Position numbers and translations under genes: made by a program. This document shows, one piece after another, positions 25,474-51,783 of a DNA stretch of 64,000 nt. The notes under the pieces were generated by a model. The model did not search any database, was not told the DNA's origin, and saw only the letters and a list, made by a program, of their open reading frames with translations. Origin of the DNA: an uncultured Candidatus Saccharibacteria bacterium (GTDB lineage Bacteria; Patescibacteriota; Minisyncoccia; Phycocordibacterales; Phycocordibacteraceae); the NCBI GenBank assembly GCA_964634305.1, contig CAZWLE010000001.1:78120-142119 (forward strand), written 5' to 3'. Numbering within the stretch: the stretch's first letter is position 1; the number at the start of each line of letters is the position of its first letter.

Positions 25474-26721
25474 ATGACCTTGGCTGAAGAACTGAAAGCG
25501 CGTGGATTCGCGGAGCATTCCTCCGCACCTCTTGAAACTATCCTTAAGGATAAACGCTACGCATATCACGGCATGGACCCGACCGCAGACTCCTTGCATG
25601 TTGGCCACCTCGTCCCACTTCTTCTTATGAAGCGGCTCTCAGACGCAGGTCATAAGACGGTGTTCTTGGTAGGAGGCGGCACCGGCATGATAGGGGACCC
25701 GCGCGACTCGGGTGAACGCTCACTTCTTGATAAGAAGACGCTCGAACACAACAAGAAGGCACTGCGTGCTCAGCTTCAAACCCTTATGGGAAAGAAGATT
25801 GAAATGGTTGATAACGCTGACTGGCTTTCAAAGCTCGGGATGCTTGAGTTCCTCCGTGACATTGGCAAGCACTTCACGGTAAACGACTTGGTAAAGCGTG
25901 ATCTCATTCGTCGCCGTCTTGAAACACCGGACGATTCCATCTCCTACACTGAATTCACCTATGCATTGCTTCAAGGCTTTGACTTCCTTGAGCTCTTTAA
26001 GAAGAAGGGTGTTGACCTTCAGGTAGGTGGTGCAGATCAGTGGACCAACATGCTTTCCGGCGTCGACCTGGTTCGCAAGAAGCTTGGTAAAGAGGTGTTC
26101 GTGTTCACGAATCCTCTCGTCACGGACGCGAACGGCAAGAAATTCGGAAAGTCCGAAGGCAACCCTATCTGGCTCGATGGTAAAAAGACGTCGTCGTTCA
26201 AGTTCTATCAGTTCTGGATGGCGCTCCCAGACCAGGGACTTGAGACCTACCTAAAGCTCTATACGTTCCTTCCGCTTGCAGATATTGAAACCCTCATGCA
26301 AAAGCACAATGCGGCCCCACAAGATCGCGAAGCACAGGAGACCCTGGCACGTCTCGTGACCGAAATCGTGCATGGTCCTGCGGCAACCGCTGCAGCGGCA
26401 GCTGCTACCGACGCATTGTTTGGTGGTCGTGCGCTATCGTCACTGTCTTCCATCGAACGTCAGTGCCTCATCGCTGAAGCACCGACTGCGCAGATTTCTA
26501 AGGGAGACGCAGAAAAGGGATACCCTATCGCTGATGCACTCGTTGCTGGCGGTATCGTGCCGTCTAAATCTGAAGCACGTCGCGTCATTGACGCAAAAGG
26601 GGTCACGATAAACGGAAAGCCGGTTGATAGTCTCGACCCAACCGTAAAGACCGCTGACTTTGACGGGGGACTCGCTATTGTTCGCAAAGGAAAGAATCCG
26701 CTCGTGCTCGTACTGAAATAG
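25474..26721 (+). CDS. tyrS: Tyrosyl-tRNA synthetase
   Basis: Class I aaRS with HIGH-type HVGH and KMSKS-type KFGKS, plus a C-terminal S4-like domain. It is 415 aa. Confidence 0.9.
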   Translation: MTLAEELKARGFAEHSSAPLETILKDKRYAYHGMDPTADSLHVGHLVPLLLMKRLSDAGHKTVFLVGGGTGMIGDPRDSGERSLLDKKTLEHNKKALRAQLQTLMGKKIEMVDNADWLSKLGMLEFLRDIGKHFTVNDLVKRDLIRRRLETPDDSISYTEFTYALLQGFDFLELFKKKGVDLQVGGADQWTNMLSGVDLVRKKLGKEVFVFTNPLVTDANGKKFGKSEGNPIWLDGKKTSSFKFYQFWMALPDQGLETYLKLYTFLPLADIETLMQKHNAAPQDREAQETLARLVTEIVHGPAATAAAAAATDALFGGRALSSLSSIERQCLIAEAPTAQISKGDAEKGYPIADALVAGGIVPSKSEARRVIDAKGVTINGKPVDSLDPTVKTADFDGGLAIVRKGKNPLVLVLK

Positions 26722-38003: not shown

Positions 38004-38819
38004 GTGGGCAGCGGATGCTACACTTCATGGTATCTATCGGCACATGCTGGCGAACGCATGAATCTTTTTTCCCTACACAAACATGATCGTCGTATCACGC
38101 ATGTGTATTCGAATGCGACCGTACTTCCGAATCGCTATTCGTTCCGCTTGGTAAAGCGAGCGAGTGCCTACCCGGTTACTGAAACACCGCTTCCTGCGCC
38201 ATACGATATAGCGCCAATAGTAGTAAGCAGCGCACCAGAGCCCGCACCCATACCCGATGAGGCACCTGAGATAGTTACTACATTTGACGAACGTCCAGAG
38301 CTCGGAGCAAGCGTCGTTGACGACCAAAAGCGGATGTTCCTGAAGCTGGCGAGTGTCGTGGGTCTTGGCGTAGTGGCTGCCTCCGCGATTCCAGAAAAAG
38401 CGCAGGCATACGTTATGGGTAGTAGTCCTACCTCAGGCGTCGTCGGAATGAAGGATGCGACTAATACTCGTATTAATCCCGCTACTGAGGAAGCACTCCA
38501 GGCGATTCTGGAAGGTAATGCCGTATTGAAAAAGACCGTGAGTCTATCTGCGTCTGGAACTATCCATACCCCAGCCTCTGGGAAAAAAGTTCGTATCTAC
38601 AACACTAAGTTTTCACTTGATGCGAACGTTACCAGTGTCTCGTTCCGCTTTGCTTCGGGCGGAACTGATTTCGAAAAGTACATCTCGCCACGTACTGGCG
38701 GGCTGTACGGCACGAATAATCACCCGAACTACAAGGAGGGTGGGGTAGACGAGGTCGTATACTGCGTCATAAGCGGTAGCGCGAATGTGCAGATTAATAT
38801 TGATTATCTAGAGGTATAA
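38004..38819 (+). CDS. Hypothetical single-pass membrane protein; internal KR-M-F-L-K motif + hydrophobic core + AQA resembles a Tat-type signal
   Basis: DDQKRMFLKLASVVGLGVVAASAIPEKAQA occurs at residues ~100-130. The N-terminal 100 aa may be cytoplasmic, or the true start may lie downstream. Confidence 0.45.
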   Translation: MGSGCYTSWYLSAHAGERMNLFSLHKHDRRITHVYSNATVLPNRYSFRLVKRASAYPVTETPLPAPYDIAPIVVSSAPEPAPIPDEAPEIVTTFDERPELGASVVDDQKRMFLKLASVVGLGVVAASAIPEKAQAYVMGSSPTSGVVGMKDATNTRINPATEEALQAILEGNAVLKKTVSLSASGTIHTPASGKKVRIYNTKFSLDANVTSVSFRFASGGTDFEKYISPRTGGLYGTNNHPNYKEGGVDEVVYCVISGSANVQINIDYLEV

Positions 38820-38826
38820 TTTTCGT

Positions 38827-41235
38827 ATGGCTAAACGAGTCACCGAGCACACGTTCACTGGAGGTACGGTCATGTATGACGCGTATGATTCCACCAAGAC
38901 CGTTCTTGGCGATCTCATCCGTCAATACACCGGCGCTGCTTCAACAGATAAATTTGCCGGACCAGTTAAAGTTGCGGTTGCTCGCCCAAATGAAACATCA
39001 GTGGCGGTACCAGGTATCTATCCCCATGTGGTGCGGTGGGCCGATAAATCTGGGTACTACTCAACGGGTACCGTAGCAGTATCAGGAACTGCTGTAACCG
39101 GTACCAGCACTGCCTGGTTAACCGCAGGAGTACCCATCAACGCGCGTATTGGCTTTGGCACGACTGATCCTGTCGCAGTAACCACGTGGTACACCATTTC
39201 CGCCATTGCCTCAAACACCTCTATCACGATTGATACGACAGCAGGAACTATTGCGGGAGGTACGTCGTTTGTAATTGATATGAATTACAACATCGATTGG
39301 GTCTTCCTCGCTGACGCTGCGGCTGCGGCTGCCACTCGTCGTATCACCATGTTTGAATTCCGTCGTGGTACATCCGTATTTACTTGGAAGGGGTTTATCA
39401 CTCAAACCTACCCAACAGCTACTAACCACACCATAGCGGGTATGCGTGCTGTGTACGCACCCTACACAACCGGTACCGTTGCTGTATCTGGTGCAACGGT
39501 TACTGGAACGTCTACCTCCTGGAGCACTAACCGTATCAATATTGGATCGCGTATTGGCTTTGGCTCAACGGACCCTACTCAAATTTCGACCTGGTACTAC
39601 ATCAATGCCGTAGGCTCAGATACATCAATCACGATTCAAAATAACGTGACTGCGTCAGGCACGGGCGGTACTGCTTCAAACCTCACCATATCGGGCGGTA
39701 CGGCCTATGTGATTGAAGACTTGCGTGTTCTGACCTCAACAGTAAACGCCACAGCTACCAACGGCGGCCTCTTTATGACCCCTGGTCTCTCCTATGGTGA
39801 TTTCACCGCTGCCGGTACGACTATTGCCGCTGCGACAACGGTTGATAAGGTCAAAGCATGCTACTGGCTCGCTGACGCCTCAACCGTCACCAACGACGTG
39901 GCATCCGGTCTTGCTATTGACGACCAGGACAGTTGGACACAGCAGTACTGTTATGTGATTGAACGTCAAGCAGCGACAACTCCAGCAATATATAAATACA
40001 ATTTTCGTGTTGCGCTTGCCTCAATAACGTCTGGAAAAACTACTAGCGCCTTTGTACTTGCTACTGGTACTCAAAGCGTGACTGGTAACGTATCCCAAAC
40101 CAACAACGGTCGCATCGGCACGCTGCAGCATGGTCCTGGTATAGGAGTGAAATCGCTGTACTTTGCAACAACCACTCGTATCTATCGAGTCGCAGTCACG
40201 AATATTACCAACGCTTCTACGACTTTCCTTTCAGATGCTATGGTTGAAGTACCGACCGGAGGTACTAACACGTATGCTGCGACGGGTGCGTTAACAGGTG
40301 TTGAGATCTCTGACCAAATAGATCGTCTTGTCGTTACGTCGACAGGCGCTGCTGGTGTACGAAGTTATGTAACAAAGTACAACACTAACTCCGATCCGTT
40401 CGACCACATCTTCCTAGTCGATTCAAAACAGCTTGACCAATCAACTGCGGATTCTGATTCAGTTCCTCATCCAAACATTCAGGCAGGTATCATTAACGTA
40501 TGGTCTGAGGAAGGATTGACCTATATTTCTCGCACCGGTACCGCCTCAACGACGAACCATCTCTATGCAGTCCCTCTTGGCGCAGACTGGAGCTATGCGG
40601 ATGGTACGGTAAAGCAACGCCTTGTAACGCCTGAATTGGCTACCCCTAACGCCGTTAAGTATGTGCGCGCATATTTCAACAGCGCTCAGTACTTAGGTCT
40701 CGACAATCTCACCATTCCTACAGAACCAGTGCGCATGTATTACCGCACCTCGGGCATTAGTGATAACTCTGGAGCATGGACACTCATTGATCAAACAGGG
40801 GACATCACCGGAGTAGATGGGGCCGCGTCAATACAGTTTGCTCTAGAGTTCCGCGTTATTGGAACGTTCTGTCTTCCAAACCGTGTCTACAATGTCTGTG
40901 TCGTATATGAAGACGACACTACTGACAGTCACTATCAGCCGTCAGTGGCGAATTCCTCCACGGTTGATAAACGATTTGCGTGGCGCTTCTCAACCGCCTT
41001 TGGTGGCACTGTGCCAACCCTACGGGTACGTCTGTATAACGCTACATCAGGCGGTCTATTGGTTGACGACAATACAGCAAGTCCAACAGGTACGTTTGAG
41101 AAAAGCACCAACGATGGCGGAAGCTGGGGTTCCTACAACACCACTGACAAAGCAAACGACACTACCTACATTCGCTACACTCCTGCGTCCCTTGGTGACA
41201 ACATAAAAGTACGTGCGCTTTTGACTCTGGACTAA
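38827..41235 (+). CDS. Large Thr/Gly/Ser/Ala-rich beta-type protein (802 aa) with internal domain duplication; putative surface/structural protein
   Basis: Two ~150-aa repeats (TGTVAVSGTAVTGTSTAW...RIGFGTTDP...TWY.I.A..S.TSITI). No signal peptide and no catalytic motifs. Confidence 0.5.
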   Translation: MAKRVTEHTFTGGTVMYDAYDSTKTVLGDLIRQYTGAASTDKFAGPVKVAVARPNETSVAVPGIYPHVVRWADKSGYYSTGTVAVSGTAVTGTSTAWLTAGVPINARIGFGTTDPVAVTTWYTISAIASNTSITIDTTAGTIAGGTSFVIDMNYNIDWVFLADAAAAAATRRITMFEFRRGTSVFTWKGFITQTYPTATNHTIAGMRAVYAPYTTGTVAVSGATVTGTSTSWSTNRINIGSRIGFGSTDPTQISTWYYINAVGSDTSITIQNNVTASGTGGTASNLTISGGTAYVIEDLRVLTSTVNATATNGGLFMTPGLSYGDFTAAGTTIAAATTVDKVKACYWLADASTVTNDVASGLAIDDQDSWTQQYCYVIERQAATTPAIYKYNFRVALASITSGKTTSAFVLATGTQSVTGNVSQTNNGRIGTLQHGPGIGVKSLYFATTTRIYRVAVTNITNASTTFLSDAMVEVPTGGTNTYAATGALTGVEISDQIDRLVVTSTGAAGVRSYVTKYNTNSDPFDHIFLVDSKQLDQSTADSDSVPHPNIQAGIINVWSEEGLTYISRTGTASTTNHLYAVPLGADWSYADGTVKQRLVTPELATPNAVKYVRAYFNSAQYLGLDNLTIPTEPVRMYYRTSGISDNSGAWTLIDQTGDITGVDGAASIQFALEFRVIGTFCLPNRVYNVCVVYEDDTTDSHYQPSVANSSTVDKRFAWRFSTAFGGTVPTLRVRLYNATSGGLLVDDNTASPTGTFEKSTNDGGSWGSYNTTDKANDTTYIRYTPASLGDNIKVRALLTLD

Positions 41236-41238
41236 GCC

Positions 41239-41862
41239 ATGACTCCGATTACTAAGAGTGAACAGGTCGCTGATATAAAGGACTTGGTAGTCCTGACAGA
41301 TAGCGGCGAGTACGCAGATACTGATCTTATCCTCTGCGCTTCAACCGATGCGCCAACCATTGCTATTGCTCAGTATCAAGCACAATTCGTGAAGTATGGT
41401 GAAATGGTCTACCAGTTCGAAAAGCCAGAAGAGTTGGGGCAGGCTATCGTTGCACTTGATGCAGAGTCTACACATGACGCTGCGCAATTGTGGCGTGAAG
41501 AAGAGGCACGACGTATCGCACGAGAGCAGGGAACATTGACCCCTGCTGACCAAAGCCCTGCTCCTGATGCAGTCGTACCACCAGAACCTGAAGCAGAGCC
41601 ACAACCAGAAGAAGAGGTTGAATTTCTTAACGACCCGCCTGCACAAAACGCTACATCAACGCCACCGACCAGTGACCAACCGTCTGAACCGGAAATGCCA
41701 GTTATTGACGTCACTGATCCTCCTGAAGTACTAGGAACCACGACTCCTGACCTTCCACCCGTTGACCCAGACCCACTTCCACCTCCTATCACAGAGCCAG
41801 ACATTGTGCCTATTCCTGAACCAGAGGTAATAAGCAATACCAGTACTACCACTCCAGAGTAG
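41239..41862 (+). CDS. Hypothetical protein with globular N-domain and acidic Pro/Glu-rich disordered tail
   Basis: 207 aa; the tail is PEPEAEPQPEEE...PPVDPDPLPPPITEPDIVPIPEPE. Confidence 0.45.
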   Translation: MTPITKSEQVADIKDLVVLTDSGEYADTDLILCASTDAPTIAIAQYQAQFVKYGEMVYQFEKPEELGQAIVALDAESTHDAAQLWREEEARRIAREQGTLTPADQSPAPDAVVPPEPEAEPQPEEEVEFLNDPPAQNATSTPPTSDQPSEPEMPVIDVTDPPEVLGTTTPDLPPVDPDPLPPPITEPDIVPIPEPEVISNTSTTTPE

Positions 41863-42076: not shown

Positions 42077-42808
42077 ATGGAGGACGCGGTCGGGTTTGCT
42101 GAAACATACGGTACCTATCTAGAGGAGCTGCGGGTTCGTCTATATCGGTTGGCTATTGTCTTTGTCGCTGCTTTTTTTATTGGCGTTGCCTCAACCGGCG
42201 TATTATTGCCATTCTTTGTACGCTTTCTTGCCATAGAGAACGTCACTATTATCACTACGTCTCCTTTTCAATTGCTTGAACTCGCCATGAATACGGGCTT
42301 CTTTGTTGCCCTTATCGTGACCATTCCGCTCGCATTTCATCAGGCATACACGTTTTTGCGCGACGGTCTTTTGCCACAAGAACGACGTATTATCTTTTTT
42401 CTGATACCGCTATCCCTAGGATTGTTTGCGGTAGGGTTCGCCTACGGTTTTGCGGTCATGTACTACGCCATACAATTCATCGCGAGTCTCAATACAACAT
42501 ATGGCATTACGAACCTATGGAGCATTACTCAGTTTATTTCCCAAATGCTCATTACCGCCGCGCTCCTTGGCTGCATTTTCCAATTCCCGGTCATTATTTC
42601 AGGCCTCGTGCGCCTTGGGGTATGTAGCGCGAACTTCCTGCGCCGTCATCGGCGAAGCGCCTATGCCTTGATATTCGTCTTCGTCGCTTTACTTCCCCCT
42701 ACCGACGGGCTATCGTTTCTTGTGATGTCCCTTCCGCTTATAGGACTATACGAGCTCACCATCATCGGTAACTCGTTTGGTCGACGGAAAGAACTCTTAA
42801 AAGCGTAA
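42077..42808 (+). CDS. tatC: Twin-arginine translocase subunit TatC
   Basis: 243 aa with 6 TM and a TatC-like topology and composition (FFV.F...G..F..P). Confidence 0.7.
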   Translation: MEDAVGFAETYGTYLEELRVRLYRLAIVFVAAFFIGVASTGVLLPFFVRFLAIENVTIITTSPFQLLELAMNTGFFVALIVTIPLAFHQAYTFLRDGLLPQERRIIFFLIPLSLGLFAVGFAYGFAVMYYAIQFIASLNTTYGITNLWSITQFISQMLITAALLGCIFQFPVIISGLVRLGVCSANFLRRHRRSAYALIFVFVALLPPTDGLSFLVMSLPLIGLYELTIIGNSFGRRKELLKA

Positions 42809-42819
42809 CCTTAGCACCT

Positions 42820-42978
42820 ATGTTTGGACTCGGTTCAAATGAGCTCATCATCATCGCAGTCATTCTTGTGCTCCTTTTTGGCGCAACAAGAATTCCTGCC
42901 CTCACTCGTGGGGTAGCGGACGCGATTCGCACGCTCCGCGGCGCATTCAAGGACGAGGACAAGAACAAGAAGGGCTAG
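42820..42978 (+). CDS. tatA: Twin-arginine translocase subunit TatA/E (52 aa)
   Basis: It is absent from the track (<60 aa). MFGLGSNELIIIAVILVLLFGATRIP has an N-terminal TM, a hinge, and an amphipathic helix (ALTRGVADAIRTLRGAF). Confidence 0.7.
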   Translation: MFGLGSNELIIIAVILVLLFGATRIPALTRGVADAIRTLRGAFKDEDKNKKG

Positions 42979-43064
42979 CGTTCGCTTGTTCAAGAACACC
43001 GCCACAGGAGCACTGTGGCGGTGTTCTTGTGTAGATGTGGAAATGATGAAGAAAAGGGGGGTGG

Positions 43065-46000
43065 GTGGGTGCTACCATAGCTACAGCCTCACGGCGGCAT
43101 TCCGTGCATATTCCATCTTTCACCACTGCACGTATTACGCGACTAAGCGCACTAGCGTTGGTTCTGTTCGCTGTACTTGCTGCAACGGCGTATGCCGCGT
43201 ATCCGCAGTACCTTCCCAACACGTCTGTCACCATCGGTGAATTTGTGTATGACGACGATTTTCAAGCAACCACCACTGCTGGCTGTACCGTCAGCGTGTA
43301 CGAGCCAGGAGGCAGTCTGTCAGTTAACGCTGCTTCTATGTCAGCTGACGCCAACAGCTGGTACTCGTACTCATTTACACCGTCCGGAGGGACGGTCGGT
43401 ATTTGGCGCACCGTCATGTCGTGTGGCTCCTCAGGAAATGGCAGTCTTATCCGTGCTGACAAGACCTTTGAGATTACCAACAACATCGTCTCATCGACCT
43501 CGGTCGCCGCACTCGTTAACACCAACACCAACACGGCCATAGCAACTGCCTCTTCTTCACTCTCAGCCACATTACCTGGGTCTATTTGGGCTTTCTCTGG
43601 AAGAACGCTGACGTCGTTTGGTACGTTGGTGTCTGACATCTGGGCAAACGGTACGCGTACGCTCACTGGTTTTGGCACGCTCGCGTCTGACGTATGGGGT
43701 GTCGCAACGAGAACGCTTACCGCTGCAACACTAAGCTCCGGTTCGCTCGCGACTCTCACTGACGTTCAGAACGCGTCGTCATCAGTAGTCACACTGGTAA
43801 ACGCCAATACTAATACAGCATCGTCATCGATAGCGTCGGTAGTAAATGCCAACACGAACGCCATTGTTGCAGTGGCATCATCCTCTCTAGCTGCGGTGAT
43901 AAATGCGAACACTAACGCATCCATCCTTACTGCTTCTACGTCACTTGGCACGTCGATTGCTTCTGTATCTACATCGATTACCAATATTCCAACAGCCGTA
44001 TGGGCATCGGGTACACGCACCCTAACCTCATTTGGCACGCTCGCGTCAGACGTATGGACGAGTGGTACGCGCACACTCACAGGCGCAGGTCTCACCTCAG
44101 GTTCACTCGCTACACAAACGGATGTGCAGAATGCATCGTCATCGGTAGTGACGCTCGTAAATGCTAATACCAACACTACCGTTAATACCGCATCCTCCTC
44201 ACTTGCGGCTGTTATTAACGCAAATACCAACCTGCAAGTCCTCACCGCATCCTCATCTCTTGGCGCATCAATTGCGGCTGTCGCATCCTCAATCACTAAT
44301 ATCCCAACGAATGTATGGGCTGCAGGTACTCGTACGCTCACGAGTTACGGCACGCTCGCGGCTGATGTGTGGACCAACGGTACGCGCACGCTTACCGGTG
44401 CCGGTCTCTCGTCTGGCTCACTTGCGACACAGTCTGACGTTCAAACTGCCTCCTCGTCACTTGGCTCAGCGGTTTCTGCAAGTACGGCGAGCGTAAATGC
44501 CAACACTAACTCCATTGTAGGTACTGCTTCGTCATCGCTCGCTGCCATCATTAACGCGAACACGAACCTTCAAGTCCTGACCGCATCAACCTCACTTGGT
44601 ACTTCGATTGCATCCGTAGCGTCTTCAATCACGAACATTCCAACCGCAGTCTGGGCTGCGGGTACCCGTACGCTCACTGGGTTTGGCACCCTTGCAGCTG
44701 ACGTCTGGACCAACGGCACGCGTACGCTTACCGGTGCGGGCCTCACGTCTGGTTCACTCGCTACACAAACGGATGTGCAGAATGCATCGTCATCGGTCGT
44801 AACGCTTGTAAATGCCAACACGAATACCACCGTTGGTACGGCATCTTCGTCGATAGCGTCTGTCGTGAATGCCAATACGAATGCACAGGTTCTTGCTGCA
44901 TCCTCGTCGCTTGGTGCAACTCTTTCAACCCTCTCAAGCTCTATATCAAACGTTCCTGCAGCCGTTTGGAATATTGCTACATCGACTCTCACCACACCAG
45001 GTTCTATCGGCAGGGTGCTTGCGCTTAACATCGATATTCCAATCTCTTCCGTTTCGGGCGGCGCTGGCATCACCGTTGCTGATATCTGGGCATATGGCGC
45101 ACGTACACTCACAAGCGCCGCACTCACCTCAGGTTCACTCGCTACACAAACGGATGTACAAAATGCCTCCTCGTCTGTCGTTACTCTTGTGAACGCAAAT
45201 ACCAACACGGCCTCCTCCTCAATCGCAGCGGTGGTGAATGGCACGATTGTTACTGCGTCGTCATCGCTTGGTTCAGCAATATCGGCAGGTACGGCAAGCG
45301 TAAATGCCAACACGAATGCAACGGTGCTGAACGCATCGTCGTCTCTTGCAACATCGATTTCTGGTATACCGGCAGCAGTATGGGCAGCTGGAACACGTAC
45401 CCTAACCTCCTTTGGTACGCTCGCAGCTGATGTATGGACGAACGGCACACGCACACTCACCGACGCTGGTCTTACTTCAGGTTCGCTTGCGACCCAATCT
45501 GATGTTCAGACCGCATCAAGCTCTCTAGGGGCTGCAGTCTCTGCAGGGACAGCAAGCGTAAATGCCAACACGAACGCAGTCGTTGGTTCCGCATCCTCTT
45601 CGCTCGCATCAGTTATCAATGCAAATACCAATCTCCAGGTACTCACCGCATCAACCTCACTTGGTACCTCTATCGCATCGGTTGCTACCTCAATCACCAA
45701 CATTCCAACCGCAGTATGGGCTGCGGGTACCCGTACGCTTACTGGATTTGGCACCCTCGCGTCTGACGTGTGGGCAGTTGGAACACGTACGCTCACGGGC
45801 GCTGGTCTTAGCTCCGGTTCACTTGCCACACAGTCTGATGTTCAGACCGCCTCCTCGTCACTTGGCTCAGCCGTTGCTGCTGGTACGGCGAGTGTGAACG
45901 CGAACACTAACAGTATCGTTGGCACCGCATCCTCCTCGATAGCAGCAGTGGTGAATGCCAATACTAACTCCGTCGTTGCCATCGCATCCTCCTCACTTGC

Positions 46001-49000
46001 CGCCGTCATTAATGCAAACACGAACGCAGCAGTCCTCACGGCTTCTACCTCACTTGGCACATCGATTGCATCCGTCGCAACGTCAATCACCAATATTCCA
46101 ACGGCCGTATGGGCCTCAGGTACTCGTTCTCTCACCACGTTTGGCACGCTCGCCTCTGATGTATGGGCCGTTGGTACACGTACCCTCACTGGCGCAGGTC
46201 TGAGCTCAGGCAGCCTTGCGACCCTTACTGACGTTCAGAACGCATCTTCATCGGTCGTAACGCTGGTTAATGCCAATACCAACACTACCGTCGGCACTGC
46301 CTCTTCATCGCTTGGTTCAGCGGTCTCTGCAGGAACCGCAAACGTGAATGCAACGGTCGCTACTGCATCGTCATCACTCGCATCAATCATTAATGCGAAC
46401 ACTAACCTTCAGGTACTGACCGCATCCTCATCTCTTGGTGCATCAATTGCGACTGTTGCGTCTTCTATAACAAATATTCCTACCAATGTATGGGCTGCAG
46501 GTACTCGTACACTCACGAGTTACGGCACCCTCGCGGCTGATGTATGGACGAACGGCACAAGAACGCTCACTGGCGCAGGTCTAAGTTCAGGTTCACTCGC
46601 AACACAATCAGACGTTCTTACTGCATCAAGCTCTCTCGGTTCAGCGGTATCTGCAGGAACCGCGAGTGTGAATGCGAATACTAATAGCGTCGTAGGCACT
46701 GCCTCGTCATCAATTGCATCGATAGTTAACGCAAACACTAATACTCAGGTCCTCACCGCCTCCACGTCACTCGGTGCTTCTATCGCATCCGTAGCGTCTT
46801 CAATCACGAACATTCCAACCGCAGTCTGGGCTGCGGGTACCCGTACGCTCACTGGGTTTGGCACCCTTGCAGCTGACGTCTGGACCAACGGCACGCGTAC
46901 GCTTACCGGTGCGGGCCTCACGTCTGGTTCACTCGCTACACAAACGGATGTGCAGAATGCATCGTCATCGGTCGTAACGCTTGTAAATGCCAACACGAAT
47001 ACCACCGTTGGTACGGCATCTTCGTCGATAGCGTCTGTCGTGAATGCCAATACGAATGCACAGGTTCTTGCTGCTTCCTCGTCTCTTGGCGCATCACTCA
47101 GCGCGCTCCCAACCGCTATTTGGGGCGTAGCAACAAGCACGTTGAATGTTCCTAACTCCATTGGTCTCGTACTCGCCACAAACATCGACCGCGCTATCTC
47201 AAGCGTTACTGGTGTGGGAGGAGGCCTCAGCGCGGCTGATGTATGGGCATACGGTACCCGCACACTCACTGGCGCATCCCTTACTTCAGGCTCACTTGCC
47301 GTTCAGTCAGATGTACTCACTGCTTCCTCATCGCTTGGTAGTGCAATTACGAATAGTCAGACCGCAATCAATAGCAATACCGACACAACGGTCGGGACGG
47401 CATCGAGCTCCATCGCTGCAGTGGTGAATGCAAACACCAACTCAGTCGTACAGGCAGCATCTTCATCGCTTGGGATTTCACTTTCCAGTCTTGCGTCAGC
47501 CGTTGCCGCGGTACCAGTAGGGGTGTGGGCAAACAGTACTCGTTCACTCACGACGTTCGGCACCCTCGCGTCTGATGTATGGGGTGTAGGTACTCGTACG
47601 TTGACCGGTGCTGGTCTCTCGTCTGGATCACTTGCAACACAAACTGACGTACAGACTGCCTCAAGCTCGGTCGCTGCAGTCGTAAACGCAAACACGAATG
47701 CTGCTATTAGCACTGCATCATCGTCAGTAGCATCAGTCGTTAATGCCAATACCAACGCGAGCGTACTAACTGCGTCTACATCGCTCGGTACATCGATCGC
47801 ATCGGTCGCAACGTCTATCACCAACATTCCAACCGCGGTCTGGGCAGCAGGCACCCGTACGCTTACTGGATTTGGCACCCTTGCAGCTGACGTCTGGACC
47901 AACGGTACGCGCACGCTTACCGGTGCCGGTCTCTCGTCTGGCTCACTTGCGACACAGTCTGATGTTCAAACAGCTTCTTCATCGCTTGGCTCAGCGGTTA
48001 CTGCCGGTACGGCGAGTGTGAACGCGAACACTAACAGTGTCGTTGGCACCGCATCCTCCTCTGTTGCGTCAGTCGTGAATGCAAACACAAACGCAACGGT
48101 TCTCGCTGCGTCATCATCTCTTGGCCTGTCCCTCTCAACGATTTCTTCGTCCATCACCGGCATCCCAACTGCGGTATGGGGCGTGGCTACCTCAACGCTT
48201 TCAACACCAGGGTCGATTGGTCGCGTACTCTCAGAAAACATCGACATTCCACTCTCTACTATTTCAGGTGGGGGAGGAGCTACCGCAGCTGACATCTGGG
48301 CGTACGGCGCACGCACACTCACAAGCGCTGCGCTCACGTCAGGCGCTATCGCTACCCAAAGCGACATACAGACCGCATCGTCATCTATCGCTGCAGTCGT
48401 GAATACGAATACGTTCACGACGGTCTCTAATGCGTCGTCATCCATTGCTGCAGTCGTTAATACAAACACGGTCGCTGCAGTACAAACTGCTTCAACCTCT
48501 CTCGGTGCTTCAATTTCAAATATTCCAAACGCGGTATGGAGTGCAAGTACCAGAACCCTCACGTCGTTTGGCACCTTGGTTAACGACATATGGAACTTCG
48601 CAACGCGTACACTCACGACCAGTACATCAGCAACCTGGAGTATGTCGCTCTCTGGCTCTAAGAATGTTCTTGCAGGTACGGCATATCGCGCCACGGTAAC
48701 GCTTTCAAATGACGGAAATCTTGAAGACCCATTGGCTGCACCAACGATTACGATTTATGACAGCAATCGTGCAGCCGTCGTCACTAATGCTGCAATGACG
48801 CATGCAGGTACTGGTATCTATCAGTACACGCTCACTACCTCAGGCAGTGCATCGGAAGGTGCATGGGAAGCACTCGTTACCTCAAACGTTGAGAGCGGAA
48901 AGACGCTCACGAGTTCTGAGTTCTTCACGCTCTCAACCGCACCAGCGCAGGTGCTCATCCAGTCGATGGCATCCACCACCGTGCCAAACATTGCCGCAAA

Positions 49001-49487
49001 CATTCGTATCACAAACGAAGGTAACGTCGATTACGAATACCAGTACGAGTGGTGTGTGGTATCTACGATTGGTAACGCCTGTGGTGGGGGAGACGACATC
49101 TACTACGCATCAGCTGCCAAACTCATTGAGACGGGACAAAACTTTGATACCACGCTCACCGCAACCGTACCGCTTACCGGTACCTACTACTTCAAGACGG
49201 TCGTCTATTTCGGTGCTGAATCGTCTGGCGCCTCACGTCAGTTCACTGCAACGGCTGGCAGCACCGGTGGTGGTGGAGGCGGTGGTGGAAGCGGTAGTTG
49301 TGATGACAACCGTGAAGACGCTGACCTTAACTGTGACGGCAAGGTAAATGCCATCGACTTCTCGATTCTTCTAGCGTTCTGGAAGACAGAGCCACCGTTC
49401 CGTAATCCGGGGGTTGACCTCAATAATGACGGCAAAGTGGATGCTATCGACTTCTCGATACTTCTCTACCGCTGGGAACGCAATTAA
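43065..49487 (+). CDS. Giant repetitive surface protein (2140 aa): RR-containing signal/anchor, ~1900 aa of Ala/Ser/Thr/Asn-rich tandem repeats, Gly-rich linker, C-terminal type-I dockerin
   Basis: GTG start after an AAAAGGGGGG tract. The N-terminus is ASRRHSV + LSALALVLFAVLAATAYA. Repeats carry VNANTN / WAAGTRTLTGFGTLAADVW motifs. The C-terminus has duplicated Ca-binding segments DLNCDGKVNAIDFSILL / DLNNDGKVDAIDFSILL. Confidence 0.8.
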   Translation: MGATIATASRRHSVHIPSFTTARITRLSALALVLFAVLAATAYAAYPQYLPNTSVTIGEFVYDDDFQATTTAGCTVSVYEPGGSLSVNAASMSADANSWYSYSFTPSGGTVGIWRTVMSCGSSGNGSLIRADKTFEITNNIVSSTSVAALVNTNTNTAIATASSSLSATLPGSIWAFSGRTLTSFGTLVSDIWANGTRTLTGFGTLASDVWGVATRTLTAATLSSGSLATLTDVQNASSSVVTLVNANTNTASSSIASVVNANTNAIVAVASSSLAAVINANTNASILTASTSLGTSIASVSTSITNIPTAVWASGTRTLTSFGTLASDVWTSGTRTLTGAGLTSGSLATQTDVQNASSSVVTLVNANTNTTVNTASSSLAAVINANTNLQVLTASSSLGASIAAVASSITNIPTNVWAAGTRTLTSYGTLAADVWTNGTRTLTGAGLSSGSLATQSDVQTASSSLGSAVSASTASVNANTNSIVGTASSSLAAIINANTNLQVLTASTSLGTSIASVASSITNIPTAVWAAGTRTLTGFGTLAADVWTNGTRTLTGAGLTSGSLATQTDVQNASSSVVTLVNANTNTTVGTASSSIASVVNANTNAQVLAASSSLGATLSTLSSSISNVPAAVWNIATSTLTTPGSIGRVLALNIDIPISSVSGGAGITVADIWAYGARTLTSAALTSGSLATQTDVQNASSSVVTLVNANTNTASSSIAAVVNGTIVTASSSLGSAISAGTASVNANTNATVLNASSSLATSISGIPAAVWAAGTRTLTSFGTLAADVWTNGTRTLTDAGLTSGSLATQSDVQTASSSLGAAVSAGTASVNANTNAVVGSASSSLASVINANTNLQVLTASTSLGTSIASVATSITNIPTAVWAAGTRTLTGFGTLASDVWAVGTRTLTGAGLSSGSLATQSDVQTASSSLGSAVAAGTASVNANTNSIVGTASSSIAAVVNANTNSVVAIASSSLAAVINANTNAAVLTASTSLGTSIASVATSITNIPTAVWASGTRSLTTFGTLASDVWAVGTRTLTGAGLSSGSLATLTDVQNASSSVVTLVNANTNTTVGTASSSLGSAVSAGTANVNATVATASSSLASIINANTNLQVLTASSSLGASIATVASSITNIPTNVWAAGTRTLTSYGTLAADVWTNGTRTLTGAGLSSGSLATQSDVLTASSSLGSAVSAGTASVNANTNSVVGTASSSIASIVNANTNTQVLTASTSLGASIASVASSITNIPTAVWAAGTRTLTGFGTLAADVWTNGTRTLTGAGLTSGSLATQTDVQNASSSVVTLVNANTNTTVGTASSSIASVVNANTNAQVLAASSSLGASLSALPTAIWGVATSTLNVPNSIGLVLATNIDRAISSVTGVGGGLSAADVWAYGTRTLTGASLTSGSLAVQSDVLTASSSLGSAITNSQTAINSNTDTTVGTASSSIAAVVNANTNSVVQAASSSLGISLSSLASAVAAVPVGVWANSTRSLTTFGTLASDVWGVGTRTLTGAGLSSGSLATQTDVQTASSSVAAVVNANTNAAISTASSSVASVVNANTNASVLTASTSLGTSIASVATSITNIPTAVWAAGTRTLTGFGTLAADVWTNGTRTLTGAGLSSGSLATQSDVQTASSSLGSAVTAGTASVNANTNSVVGTASSSVASVVNANTNATVLAASSSLGLSLSTISSSITGIPTAVWGVATSTLSTPGSIGRVLSENIDIPLSTISGGGGATAADIWAYGARTLTSAALTSGAIATQSDIQTASSSIAAVVNTNTFTTVSNASSSIAAVVNTNTVAAVQTASTSLGASISNIPNAVWSASTRTLTSFGTLVNDIWNFATRTLTTSTSATWSMSLSGSKNVLAGTAYRATVTLSNDGNLEDPLAAPTITIYDSNRAAVVTNAAMTHAGTGIYQYTLTTSGSASEGAWEALVTSNVESGKTLTSSEFFTLSTAPAQVLIQSMASTTVPNIAANIRITNEGNVDYEYQYEWCVVSTIGNACGGGDDIYYASAAKLIETGQNFDTTLTATVPLTGTYYFKTVVYFGAESSGASRQFTATAGSTGGGGGGGGSGSCDDNREDADLNCDGKVNAIDFSILLAFWKTEPPFRNPGVDLNNDGKVDAIDFSILLYRWERN
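43500..48600 (+). repeat. Intragenic tandem repeat array (unit ~110 aa / ~330 bp, higher-order period ~2175 bp) including ~290-bp identical copies at 44610-44899 and 46785-47074
   Basis: Checked by direct comparison of nucleotide lines. Other copies are ~80-90% identical. The many antisense track ORFs here are repeat artefacts. Confidence 0.8.
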
Positions 49488-49489
49488 CT

Positions 49490-50323
49490 ATGAGACCTTT
49501 CCTTATCGCTCTTCTGCTTCTTCTCATCGCGCCAAGCGCGCATGCTGCGCGTGTTGAAGTGACGCCGTCCGTAAGCGAAGCGGCACCAGGTCAATCATTC
49601 ACTCTTACGGTCGTCTTGTTTGCTGACGAGACCGCGGTGAACGTTGCCGAAGGAAGGATTCTTATTCCTGAAGGCGTCCATGTAGATGCGGCAAGTGTTG
49701 CCGGTGCTGCGTTTACGCTCTGGCCCTCTCCACCTTCTTACTCTCCCGTTGAAAACGCTGTCCTGTTCTCAGGAGGCGTCCCTGGCGGTATTGCAGGCAG
49801 AACATCAGGTACGCTATTTACGATACGCGCTCGTGCGGATGAAGCAGGTTCGTACGTGTTCTCACCACGCGCCGTCAACGCATATCTTGATGATGGAAAA
49901 GGTACGTTGGATTCCGTCACTACTTCGTCAGCCGTGGTGTCAGTGCATGAGGGCGCATCAGCACCAGCCGGTGTCGATCAAGCAAAGGAACCACTCTCTG
50001 CCGCGATTGGTAGTGACCCATCACTCTTTGACGGTAAATACTTTGTTGCCTTTTATGGTGGCGACCGAGGTAACGGCATCCTTCGCTACGAAGTGAAGGA
50101 AGGTGTCTTTGGTAGCTTTGTTGACGCTGGACGCTACTACGTACTCGAAGACCAATCGCTTGGGCGCCAGATTACGATTCGCGCGATAGACGCTGAGGGT
50201 GTCGCTGCAGAGAAGGTACTTGCCGCAGAACGTGGTATTCCTGCCTGGGTCTTCATCGCCGGTGCCATCTTCCTCGCCCTTGCTCTCTGGCGCCTCATCC
50301 GCCGCATGCGCAGCCGCGTATGA
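49490..50323 (+). CDS. Cohesin-like domain protein, Sec signal peptide, C-terminal TM anchor
   Basis: Signal is MRPFLIALLLLLIAPSAHA. The cohesin-like pattern is VEVTPSVSEAAPGQSFTLTVVL...NVAEGRILIPEGVHV. The C-terminus is WVFIAGAIFLALALW + RRMRSR. Confidence 0.55.
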   Translation: MRPFLIALLLLLIAPSAHAARVEVTPSVSEAAPGQSFTLTVVLFADETAVNVAEGRILIPEGVHVDAASVAGAAFTLWPSPPSYSPVENAVLFSGGVPGGIAGRTSGTLFTIRARADEAGSYVFSPRAVNAYLDDGKGTLDSVTTSSAVVSVHEGASAPAGVDQAKEPLSAAIGSDPSLFDGKYFVAFYGGDRGNGILRYEVKEGVFGSFVDAGRYYVLEDQSLGRQITIRAIDAEGVAAEKVLAAERGIPAWVFIAGAIFLALALWRLIRRMRSRV

Positions 50324-51783
50324 AAAAGCTCCTCGCACTCACCCTCGCACTCTTTCTTCTAGCGCCGTCAGCGTTTGCGGCGAGCATGAGCGTGCTGCCG
50401 GCAGGACGGAATGTTAATGCCGGTGACCTCGTGACTGCACGCGTCTCTATTAATACGAGCGGGGTAGCAATTAACCAAGCAGAAGCAACGCTTCGTTTTC
50501 CTACCGATGTTCTGGAAGTAGTCTCAGTGTCAAAGTCGTCGTCTATCTTCTCACTCTGGGTTGAAGAGCCAACCTATTCAAATACCGCAGGTACCGTTTC
50601 TTTTAATGGTGGTGTCCCAACCCCTGGCTACACCGGAAGCGACGGTGCGGTTGTCTCCGTCACTTTTCATGCAAAGACAGCAGGGACGGCGAGCCTTCTC
50701 CTGTCCGATGCAGCGGTGCGCGCAAACGACGGGCGAGGAACGGATGTTCTGTCCAGCTGGAGTGGGGCAACGATAACCGTAACCGCTGTCACTACGCCTG
50801 CGCCGCTTCCTGCTGCACCGACGCCGACGCCTAGCCCTACGCCGACCCCAACACCAGCTCCAATACCGTCTGACACCTCTGCAACCATTTCCTCGCTGAC
50901 GCACCCAAGTCAGGACATGTGGTATGCAAACGCGAATCCGACCGTACGCTGGAGCCTGCCACGTGGCGCCACCTCCGTACAAGTCATCGTTTCTTCTGAC
51001 CAAGATGCAGTCCCTACCGTCACCCACGCCGCATCGGTGACCGAACGAAAGATTGAGAATCTTGCAGACGGCACCTCGTACTTCAATCTTCGCTACCGCA
51101 CAGGTAGTACGTGGAGTGACCTGTATACCTTCCGTCTCAATATCGATACCGCACCACCAGAAGCGATGACGCACTCGTTTGTATATGACGAAGCATCACG
51201 TGAGCTCATGATTGCGCTTGCGGCAAGCGATGAGACGTCAGGTATCGCAAGCTACGAGCTCACGATTGACAAAGACGCTCCGGTATCACTTCGCGCTGAA
51301 GCGTTTGCGGAAGGTACCTACGGGTATCCGGTTGATGAACCAGGTCTCCACACCGTCTCACTCGCCATTATTGATAAAGCAGGGAATCGTCTCACGATAC
51401 CGGGCTCCTTCATGGTTCCGGTTTCCGTCCTCGACACGCCACTCGTCTCGTTCGGCTTCTTCAATATCACCTTGCTCGGCGCACTCCTCTTCATGGGCCT
51501 CATCTCCATACTTTCTCTCCTCGTTGCCGCTACTGCGCTCTGGCGTCCGCACCAGAAGCCAAAGAAAGCTGCATCTCCGGTAAAGGGTCGTGCGTCAAAA
51601 GAGATAGTCCGTCAGGCATTCGATATCTTGCGCCAAGACCTTGATACGAATGTAGGCGTAGCACAGAAGATACGAGACGGTAAGCCGCTCACCGCTGAAG
51701 ATGAGGCTGCGGGCCGCACCATGCGTAAAAACCTTGATGACTTCGAGCGTTACCTCAACGAGGAGGCAAACCTCTCCAAGTAG
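50320..51783 (+). CDS. Cohesin-like domain protein with Pro/Thr linker, Ig/FN3-like middle domains, C-terminal TM anchor and cytoplasmic tail
   Basis: Signal is MKKLLALTLALFLLAPSAFA. The cohesin-like N-domain is NVNAGDLVTARVSINTSGVAINQAEATLRFPTDVLEVVSV. A TPTPSPTPTPTP linker and a TM (LLGALLFMGLISILSLLVAATALW) follow. Confidence 0.55.
   Translation: MKKLLALTLALFLLAPSAFAASMSVLPAGRNVNAGDLVTARVSINTSGVAINQAEATLRFPTDVLEVVSVSKSSSIFSLWVEEPTYSNTAGTVSFNGGVPTPGYTGSDGAVVSVTFHAKTAGTASLLLSDAAVRANDGRGTDVLSSWSGATITVTAVTTPAPLPAAPTPTPSPTPTPTPAPIPSDTSATISSLTHPSQDMWYANANPTVRWSLPRGATSVQVIVSSDQDAVPTVTHAASVTERKIENLADGTSYFNLRYRTGSTWSDLYTFRLNIDTAPPEAMTHSFVYDEASRELMIALAASDETSGIASYELTIDKDAPVSLRAEAFAEGTYGYPVDEPGLHTVSLAIIDKAGNRLTIPGSFMVPVSVLDTPLVSFGFFNITLLGALLFMGLISILSLLVAATALWRPHQKPKKAASPVKGRASKEIVRQAFDILRQDLDTNVGVAQKIRDGKPLTAEDEAAGRTMRKNLDDFERYLNEEANLSK

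Follow-up and report, generated by a model that had tools for sequence, protein, structure and literature searches.

What keeps a very large, repeat-rich protein on the surface of the cell that makes it, and what could such a protein do there? The question is raised by a gene, here called Dock, in a 64,000-nucleotide stretch of contig CAZWLE010000001.1 (the whole stretch is referred to below as the window). Dock runs without interruption over 43065..49487 of the plus strand and encodes 2140 amino acids (aa), of which Ser, Ala and Thr make up about 16% each (48% together) and Asn 7%; an earlier, sequence-only reading of this DNA had described a single Ala/Ser/Thr/Asn-rich repeat open reading frame (ORF), and we recovered the same ORF and composition. 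On balance, we consider it probable that Dock is a secreted, non-enzymatic cell-surface fibre of the Paceibacteria (Candidate Phyla Radiation, CPR, or Patescibacteria), variable in length and anchored through cohesin-dockerin contacts.

In the mechanism that we propose, a cleavable signal peptide would lead to export, most likely through the Sec pathway, and the C-terminal dockerin, carried on a flexible Gly linker, would bind the cohesin of CohA, of CohB or of both, holding the fibre on the cell. CohA and CohB are the predicted products of the two genes directly downstream of Dock, and they would act as translationally coupled, single-pass membrane anchors. The two C-terminal β-sandwich domains of Dock would form the base of the fibre, and the stalk would serve as a spacer in which 15 Trp/Arg connectors alternate with uncharged segments, probably helical and probably arranged as an oligomeric coiled coil. 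The stalk would project the N-terminal β-sandwich outward, presumably to a host cell or a surface, and its length would evolve via duplication, deletion and gene conversion among its units. CPR bacteria are thought to live attached to other cells, the attachment machinery of Paceibacteria is essentially unknown and we know of no cultured members of the group. The three-gene module is easily recognised and supplies definite candidates with which ideas on surface display and host contact can be put to the test.

Dockerin, cohesins and the conserved gene trio

We recognised a dockerin by two segments of about 22 residues, each with a calcium loop of the form D-x-[DN]-x-D-G-x-x-[DN]-x-x-D followed by a helix. 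The C-terminus of Dock (aa 2087-2137) carries two such segments, DLNCDGKVNAIDFSILLAFW and DLNNDGKVDAIDFSILLYRW, which are near-identical, and both loops are complete (DLNCDGKVNAID followed by FSILLAFW, and DLNNDGKVDAID followed by FSILLYRW). Pfam Dockerin_1 (PF00404) matches the region with 34.5 bits against a gathering score of 22.9, and cellulosomal dockerins are all that the whole protein matches among PDB sequences. The canonical C-terminal dockerin with two calcium-binding repeats that had been proposed before is thus confirmed, and so is the Gly linker ahead of it, at aa 2067-2078. What the earlier reading overlooked is that the partners lie next door: the window holds exactly one dockerin and two cohesins, those of CohA and CohB, and these neighbours explain why Dock ends in a dockerin.

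CohB has a Sec-type signal peptide, a cohesin, a Pro/Thr linker, immunoglobulin (Ig)-like domains, a transmembrane helix and a cytoplasmic tail of about 70 aa, and its cohesin is matched by Pfam Cohesin (PF00963) with 29.3 bits against a gathering score of 24.1. CohA is laid out as a Sec-type signal peptide, a divergent cohesin, a second small domain, a C-terminal transmembrane helix and a basic tail. The CohA of the window itself has no Pfam match, and the Pfam Cohesin family is matched by 4/36 CohA orthologues (best E 2.7e-11). A CohA profile searched against the PDB gave cohesins of Ruminococcus flavefaciens scaffoldins as best matches (E 3e-4), and a hidden Markov model built from the CohA domain matches the N-terminal domain of CohB with E 1e-32. 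By these profile comparisons, CohA is a divergent cohesin. Given the near-identical halves of the Dock dockerin, it is conceivable that it binds in either orientation, or to either of the two cohesins.

The cytoplasmic tail of CohB (window 51400-51783, the CohB C-terminus) is conserved across distant loci and looks helical and charged; it contains EIVRQAFDILRQDL and, further on, NLDDFERYLNEE in the window, and EVHKAMLLLKEELRNQLETLEKIK in locus L001. Its conservation suggests an intracellular partner.

Three relatives of Dock illustrate another way of anchoring the same kind of protein. P0010, P0011 and P0013 keep the stalk and both C-terminal domains but have neither Gly linker nor dockerin. 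In their place we observed a long coiled-coil-like region, C-terminal transmembrane helices of their own and, in some members, SH3 domains. In these self-anchored proteins a built-in membrane anchor stands where Dock has its dockerin, so that dockerin-plus-cohesin and membrane anchor appear interchangeable. As judged from these sequences, this indicates that the dockerin of Dock substitutes for a membrane anchor.

The gene trio is widely conserved. A scan of GTDB with one genome per species, for which the query was an alignment of the conserved C-terminal 290 aa, found relatives of the fibre's C-terminal module encoded in 178 species. The 80 loci that were retained carry Paceibacterota/Parcubacteria labels (Nomura-, Adler-, Zambryski-, Magasanik-, Falkow- and Doudnabacteria) or labels that are evidently automatic. 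We counted gene linkage on 86 fetched loci, which stand for 85 independent places (L004 and L005 share one gene): CohA follows Dock in 86/86 and CohB in 84/86, with a median gap between Dock and CohA of 61 nucleotides (nt) across loci and of 2 nt in the window. Since TatC, encoded upstream, is just 39-73% identical across those loci and the outer flanks differ, the Dock-CohA-CohB trio is kept by more than recent common ancestry. The contigs of relatives share the order TatC, TatA, fibre, a protein of about 300 aa and a protein of about 500-590 aa.

The common parts of the family are a signal peptide, a GEFVYDD domain of about 95 aa, two NEG..EYQYEWCVV..CGGGDD domains, the Gly linker and the dockerin; the window has all of these, together with W..R.LT motifs in the stalk and CohA and CohB directly downstream. 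The N-terminal domain was found by tblastn at 36-69% identity in most loci with upstream DNA, and the two C-terminal domains are 46-69% identical across the 86 loci, both Cys being invariant. Such invariant Cys pairs fit an extracellular protein.

A full-length homology search returned 18 relatives at 29-37% identity, one of them annotated as a Candidatus Taylorbacteria dockerin protein, and a profile search of protein databases gave at least 403 clusters (90% identity) at E<=1e-10. Most of the lengths listed in those clusters fall at about 300-830 aa; among the shortest entries, many come from small contigs and are probably fragments. The stalk profile alone matched 845 representative clusters at E<=1e-3. 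Database labels read 'hypothetical' or 'dockerin type I domain-containing protein'. We found no relative nearer than about 56-58% identity to Dock (58% was the best in a metagenome scan with the N-terminal domain), and exact-sequence look-ups of Dock and CohB returned no record. Literature searches on dockerin, alone or together with cohesin, in CPR, Patescibacteria and Parcubacteria gave no description of the module or of the stalk repeat. Dock is an unusually large member of an existing, widespread and uncharacterised family.

The probable fibre and its stalk repeats

Motif maps and a segment table divide the stalk into 15 connector-plus-segment units. The sequence-only reading had counted about 17 tandem units with two short inner motifs each; its repetitive body and both motifs stand (we found 27 copies of W..GTR(T/S)LT and 30 of NxNTN in Dock), while the number of units had to be corrected. 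The connectors carry the motif (I/V)W-x2-3-GTR(T/S)LT and are exactly 37 aa long in 11 cases and 55-60 aa in the other 4, three of which have an additional VWxxATSTLxxPGSIGxxLxxNID motif. Between connectors lie one short leading segment (aa 141-169) and 14 segments of 62-95 aa rich in Ala, Ser, Thr, Asn and Val, the long ones composed of 19-aa ASSSxxxx(V/I)NANTNxxVxx repeats. At the DNA level, the repeat families of the stalk have a spacing of 315-402 nt and an identity of 60-82%.

In order to describe the fold of the fibre we relied on P0047, a relative of 552 aa that is essentially Dock with a single stalk unit. An AlphaFold2 (AF2) model based on a 68-sequence alignment reached a mean predicted local distance difference test score (pLDDT) of 80, and contains confident β-sandwiches, one N-terminal and two C-terminal, together with a confident two-helix dockerin. 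The N-terminal blocks score 82-97 and most C-terminal blocks near 90 or above. Foldseek searches against the PDB gave macroglobulin (MG), Ig and fibronectin type III (FnIII) sandwiches (TEP1, alpha-2-macroglobulin, RbmA and an adhesin extender), and placed the N-terminal sandwich among MG/Ig-like folds; the C-terminal domains have a weak Pfam MG2 match besides their MG/FnIII-type fold matches. No enzyme appeared in the Foldseek results, and searches of Dock against Pfam, NCBIfam and PHROGs gave no catalytic domain. We rejected a phage tail-fibre origin, since neither PHROGs nor NCBIfam has a family for Dock.

The stalk of P0047 was modelled as helical with a pLDDT of 43-72, and in an AF2 model of Dock aa 522-810, made with a 10-row alignment of paralogous units (pLDDT 49), only the secondary structure, long helices, is usable. 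The pattern [IVL]xxNT occurs 31 times, against 5.0 +/- 2.2 in shuffled sequences, a six-fold excess, and resembles the N@d motif of trimeric coiled coils. The lengths of stalk segments are also quantised by 7 residues (62/69/76), which we do not count as evidence for a coiled coil because it may reflect one duplicated indel. The stalk is probably an oligomeric helical fibre. If fully helical, it would be roughly 150 nm long by one estimate, while another gives the long segments alone a span of roughly 160 nm.

Several observations weigh against this picture of a helical, adhesive fibre. In the long stalk segments, 1061 residues in all, E, K, R and H are absent and residues that form helices poorly are abundant; the hydrophobicity spectrum of these segments gave nothing but harmonics, at 3.8 and 2.1 residues, of the period set by the 19-aa repeat. 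With stalk helices modelled at a pLDDT of 43-72 only, the fold is uncertain, and a two-unit piece of the stalk searched against PDB sequences found no similar solved stalk; there is room here for a β-structured stalk fibre. The presumed N-terminal tip, at 36-69% identity, is conserved and not variable, which fits a conserved ligand or a structural role better than host-specific adhesion. A dockerin protein is essential in a Saccharibacterium, and its function there is only speculated on (PMC10633639). Finally, the conserved tatC-tatA neighbourhood leaves a small chance that the twin-arginine translocation (Tat) system is involved in export. For CPR bacteria, an adhesive role of such a protein towards a host is plausible.

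Could a protein with the same architecture and the same anchoring instead be a structural part of the envelope, such as an S-layer-like canopy, a spacer, a matrix or a biofilm scaffold? We regard this as possible, if unlikely. In its favour are the conservation of the domains at both ends, the near-universal presence of the family in one clade (178 species), fold matches to the biofilm scaffold RbmA and to adhesin 'extender' domains, and the location of Dock among cell-wall and division genes (FtsW/RodA, MurG and an M23 peptidase). However, stalk length differs about six-fold between species, with some members almost stalkless, which would be unusual for a layer that forms a lattice, and Pfam and NCBIfam gave no match to a surface-layer homology (SLH) domain or to an S-layer family.

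As the sequence-only reading had stated, the blocks 44610-44899 and 46785-47074 are identical at 290/290 positions, at an offset of 2175 bp. Similarity at this offset is limited to one 733-bp pair with 86% identity (44186-44918 versus 46361-47093), so that of the higher-order repeats of about 2.2 kb described earlier only this pair and its identical core are left. Over more than 100 bp, the remaining stalk repeat pairs show identities of 71-83%, and Tandem Repeats Finder reported no repeat in the Dock gene, because the units are too diverged. In 100-bp windows around the 290-bp core, identity is 0.70-0.88 upstream, and 0.74 and then 0.33 downstream. An identical core within an 86% block, where other pairs reach 71-83%, is most naturally read as recent gene conversion between the two blocks, as had been suggested; the other stalk units are, by their divergence, old.

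The expectation of a length-variable locus also holds at the level of the family. Among complete relatives, the shortest has 533 aa and two W motifs and the longest 3002 aa, and W motifs number from 2 to 31. P0005 and P0006, encoded on contigs of 39,965 and 56,978 bp (ENA), agree at every position over 687 aa, after which a clean block of about 152 aa sets them apart. Dock is the third longest among about 45 complete family proteins, and its nearest analogue is that of L012, with 2283 aa and 31 W motifs.

A risk of assembly collapse had been pointed out as well, and it proved real for the family: of 15 relatives with an apparently broken gene, 12 have a 100-N gap inside the repeats (scaffold gaps in the public metagenome-assembled genomes, MAGs, of L010, L019, L023, L029, L034, L040, L045, L048, L057, L063, L065 and L071). 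Many database entries are thus truncated halves annotated as separate proteins. These gaps, and the exact 290-bp repeats, which are longer than common read lengths, are also what would favour the view that the length and repeat order of Dock are themselves partly an artefact of a collapsed or chimeric assembly, in which case neither the 2140 aa nor the 290-bp identity would be genomic. We consider this distinctly unlikely. The Dock ORF is uninterrupted, the other repeat pairs, at 71-83% identity, are resolvable with short reads, the gradual decay of identity around the core fits a conversion tract where an assembly junction would be sharp-edged, and a protein of similar size is encoded in L012 (2283 aa). 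Judging from these identities, the repeats of the window gene, one block aside, are diverged enough to assemble. The family as a whole is a frequent breakpoint in metagenome assemblies, and lengths annotated from MAGs need confirmation with long reads.

Six ORFs of 165-296 aa lie antisense to Dock within 43262-48694 (minus strand). We rejected them as genes; they are by-products of the repetitive, stop-poor composition.

Table 1. Features of the window at and around the Dock locus (positions refer to the window; aa numbers refer to the 2140-aa ORF).
Feature	Coordinates	Strand	Remarks
Acidic Pro-rich protein	41239-41862		Between 802-aa protein and tatC
tatC	42077..42808	+	Pfam TatC, E 2e-38; directly upstream of tatA
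tatA	42820..42978	+	Pfam TatA_B_E, E 1.5e-10; directly upstream of Dock
Stem-loop between tatA and Dock	42991..43029	+	Terminator position; perfect 17-bp stem, 5-nt loop
Purine/G-rich tract AAAAGGGGGGTGGGTGGGT	43052..43070	+	Shine-Dalgarno-like element before GTG 43065, or upstream promoter element
Dockerin fibre gene Dock	43065..49487	+	2140-aa ORF; alternative in-frame start GTG 43104
Predicted signal peptide	43065..43196	+	aa 1-44; RR at aa 10-11, h-region LSALALVLFAVLAAT, cleavage AYA/AY; read from the sequence
Extended -10-like box TGCTACCAT	43070..43078	+	Resembles the TGCTATACT-type boxes found window-wide
N-terminal β-sandwich domain	43197..43484	+	aa 45-140; GEFVYDD motif, two Cys; dockerin at the opposite end
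Repetitive stalk	43485..48620	+	aa 141-1852; from motif maps and segment table
290-bp identical block, copy 1	44610..44899	+	Within 44186-44918
290-bp identical block, copy 2	46785..47074	+	Within 46361-47093
Two C-terminal β-sandwich (MG2/Ig-like) domains	48627..49262	+	aa 1855-2066; motif NEG..EYQYEWCVV...CGGGDD
Gly-rich linker TGGGGGGGGSGS	49263..49298	+	aa 2067-2078; Gly8, just ahead of the dockerin; also in relatives
Type I dockerin	49323..49475	+	aa 2087-2137; Pfam PF00404
CohA	49490..50323	+	277 aa; starts 2 nt past the Dock stop
CohB	50320..51783	+	487 aa; 4-nt overlap with CohA

Start region, export and neighbouring genes

The first possible start of Dock, GTG 43065, is overlapped by the tract AAAA-GGGGGG-T-GGG-T-GGG (43052-43070) and sits upstream of the -10-like box TGCTACCAT. 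Boxes at the same position are found in relatives (TGCTACACT in L012 and TGCTACGAT in L020), and the window, L012 and L020 have a common intergenic layout, with a hairpin after tatA, a purine-rich stretch and then TGCTACNNT; in L012 and L020 a gap of 5-6 nt separates the box from the start codon. If TGCTACCAT at 43070-43078 is a promoter, GTG 43065 and the codons for the Arg pair (RR) lie outside the coding mRNA. The next in-frame start, GTG 43104, gives a protein beginning MHIPSF, which resembles the internal MHTLF start option in L020. The two starts are about equally likely, with a slight preference for GTG 43104, and the mature protein is identical under either model.

The 100-nt intergenic stretch that holds the hairpin folds with -40.3 kcal/mol (z = -4.95). 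In the window the tatA hairpin is without a T-run, and a consensus terminator scan passed over it for that reason, so that it was recovered by folding; the equivalent hairpins of L012 and L020 are followed by T-runs.

Boxes of this kind are not peculiar to Dock. The majority of window genes are without a Shine-Dalgarno sequence, and have instead a box (TGCTATACT, TGCTATCCT, GTATAAT or similar) that ends 6-11 nt before the ATG; examples are the starts at 25474, 38827, 42077, 53780, 55096 and 61034. Strict TGNTANNNT boxes at that position number 11 on the plus strand, where nearly all long ORFs lie, and 0 on the minus strand. This pattern points to window mRNAs that are predominantly leaderless or near-leaderless, gene by gene, even in tightly packed arrays.

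These observations bear on the model put forward in the sequence-only reading, of a Tat-exported surface protein switched on and off by slipped-strand variation of the G tract at its ribosome-binding site (RBS) and start, which we consider very unlikely. The position of the tract at the start is as had been described, and an SD-like AAGGGGGG does lie just ahead of GTG 43065 while most genes lack a Shine-Dalgarno sequence, which speaks for the model; the tract may, however, not act as an RBS. As for the switch, phase-variable homopolymers typically have at least 8 residues and lie in a promoter spacer, the RBS or the 5' coding region, whereas the tract stops at G6. Four runs of this length, and no run of 7 or more, occur in the window, where base composition alone would lead one to expect about 10 G6 runs per strand, and the closest relatives, L012 and L020, have a purine-rich stretch with only G3-G4 runs and no long homopolymer there. 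The check that had been proposed, on length variants of the tract, would need near-identical sequences, and the collections searched gave none; a metagenome pattern scan across the tract with a variable gap returned 0 matches.

The Tat part of that model starts from an RR at aa 10-11, which is indeed there, and is favoured by tatC-tatA directly upstream: the pair has the same position and strand in 43/53 informative loci, is inverted nearby in 6 and is absent in 3. The sequence of the signal, however, does not support Tat export. SRRHSV does not fit (S/T)-R-R-x-F-L-K, and the RR lies 15 residues before the h-region. An RR is present in 8/39 complete relatives, and the other 31 have Lys-rich, Sec-like leaders; leaders of relatives are Sec-like and end in A-x-A ahead of a conserved (Y/F)xPG..IGEFVYDD. 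In some high-GC relatives (L007, L008, L011, L013 and L021) an RR(R)N is found near the h-region, which speaks for Tat, while the promoter reading of TGCTACCAT, in line with L012 and L020, would leave the RR of Dock untranslated. Taken as a whole, the leaders suggest that Dock is most likely exported through Sec.

The conserved tatC-tatA pair may be accounted for by another protein of the same cluster. A small protein encoded at 38004-38819 (plus strand) has a signal of the form (D/N)-(K/R)-R-x-F-L-K, h-region, A-x-A in nearly all of 33 orthologue loci. In the window this signal reads QKRMFLKLASVVGLGVVAASAIPEKAQA up to the cleavage site and YVMGSSPTSGVVG after it, with QKRMFLK directly before the h-region and AQA at its end; it is unusually distant from the start of the ORF and comes after a conserved LPxxYSF(R/K)L(V/I)S motif. 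The small protein has no Pfam or PDB match. Its (K/R)RxFLK motif makes it a likely substrate of the adjacent TatC/TatA, and would explain the presence of the Tat genes.

Between the small protein and the acidic Pro-rich protein of Table 1 lies the gene of an 802-aa Thr/Ser/Gly-rich protein (38827-41235, plus strand), which is without signal peptide and is the most conserved of the neighbourhood, being up to 85% identical where TatC is just 43% identical. It contains an internal duplicated 'YxTGTVAVSGxxVTGTSTxW...IGFG..DP....WY.I' and has a weak PHROG tail-fibre match (E 0.007), with no Pfam, NCBIfam or PDB match. The small protein, the 802-aa protein, the acidic protein, TatC and TatA form a block, which in six loci lies as a whole in inverted orientation to Dock-CohA-CohB. 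We offer as a tentative suggestion, one that may well be wrong, that the fibre could be the outward part of an undescribed, Paceibacteria-wide surface-appendage system of eight genes in two blocks. The first block would supply a Tat-exported small protein, the 802-aa protein, the acidic protein, TatC and TatA, and the second the dockerin fibre and its two cohesin anchors. If so, a tunable fibre length would set the reach of the episymbiont to its host, and the conserved tail of CohB would couple the fibre to the cell interior.

Comparison with known systems

That Dock belongs to a cellulosome, as a dockerin-bearing enzyme or a scaffoldin for polysaccharide degradation, is suggested by a type I dockerin with adjoining cohesins but is extremely improbable, since Pfam, NCBIfam, PHROGs and the fold search found no catalytic or carbohydrate-binding module (CBM) in Dock, CohA or CohB, CohA and CohB have one cohesin each, the 64 kb hold a single dockerin, and the lineage is CPR. 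A secreted surface fibre held, as we propose, by its two neighbours has nonetheless much in common with the way in which cellulosomes are anchored in Clostridia and in Ruminococcus flavefaciens, for example through the type II dockerin of a scaffoldin and anchored cohesins. In both, a large secreted protein carries a C-terminal calcium-binding dockerin and the cohesin-bearing anchor proteins are encoded alongside. Dock also shares its near-identical halves with type I dockerins that have a dual binding mode. It differs from cellulosomes in lacking enzymes, a CBM and a scaffoldin with several cohesins, the only cargo being a single fibre, in its CPR lineage, and in anchors that are predicted single-pass membrane proteins rather than SLH-bound or sortase-linked ones.

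Dockerins outside cellulosomes offer a second comparison. Non-cellulosomal cohesin and dockerin modules are described as widespread in the work of Peer et al. 2009, as cited in PMC3821032 and PMC6487960. In the Saccharibacterium Southlakia epibionticum the dockerin-domain protein SEML1_0315 is essential and is an envelope protein suspected of host adhesion (PMC10633639). Like Dock, these are dockerins without a cellulosome; unlike for Dock, the reports give no partner cohesins, conserved operon or stalk, and SEML1_0315 is likened to Dock by its description (PMC10633639), not by sequence homology.

In its general plan, Dock resembles the trimeric autotransporter adhesins (TAAs; YadA, SadA, UspA1) and fibrillar proteins of Gram-positive bacteria such as M protein, which also present a distal domain on a variable, recombining repeat stalk with short connectors. 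Presumably, the (I/V)xxNTxx pattern of Dock corresponds to the N@d layers of TAA coiled coils. Dock differs from these proteins in having neither a β-barrel anchor nor LPXTG, in the lack of similarity to solved stalks and in its uncharged stalk; Pfam YadA_anchor has no match in Dock, whose C-terminus is the dockerin.

The giant proteins of Omnitrophota, which exceed 30,000 aa and have many dockerin and thrombospondin repeats, enzyme-like domains and transmembrane anchors of their own (bioRxiv 10.1101/2023.11.21.568195), show no evident homology to Dock, but they are likewise very large dockerin-type repeat proteins of ultra-small bacteria for which attachment to a host or prey is proposed. If our interpretation is correct, Dock with CohA and CohB would be a clear natural case of the cohesin-dockerin pair serving as a general surface anchor outside polysaccharide degradation.

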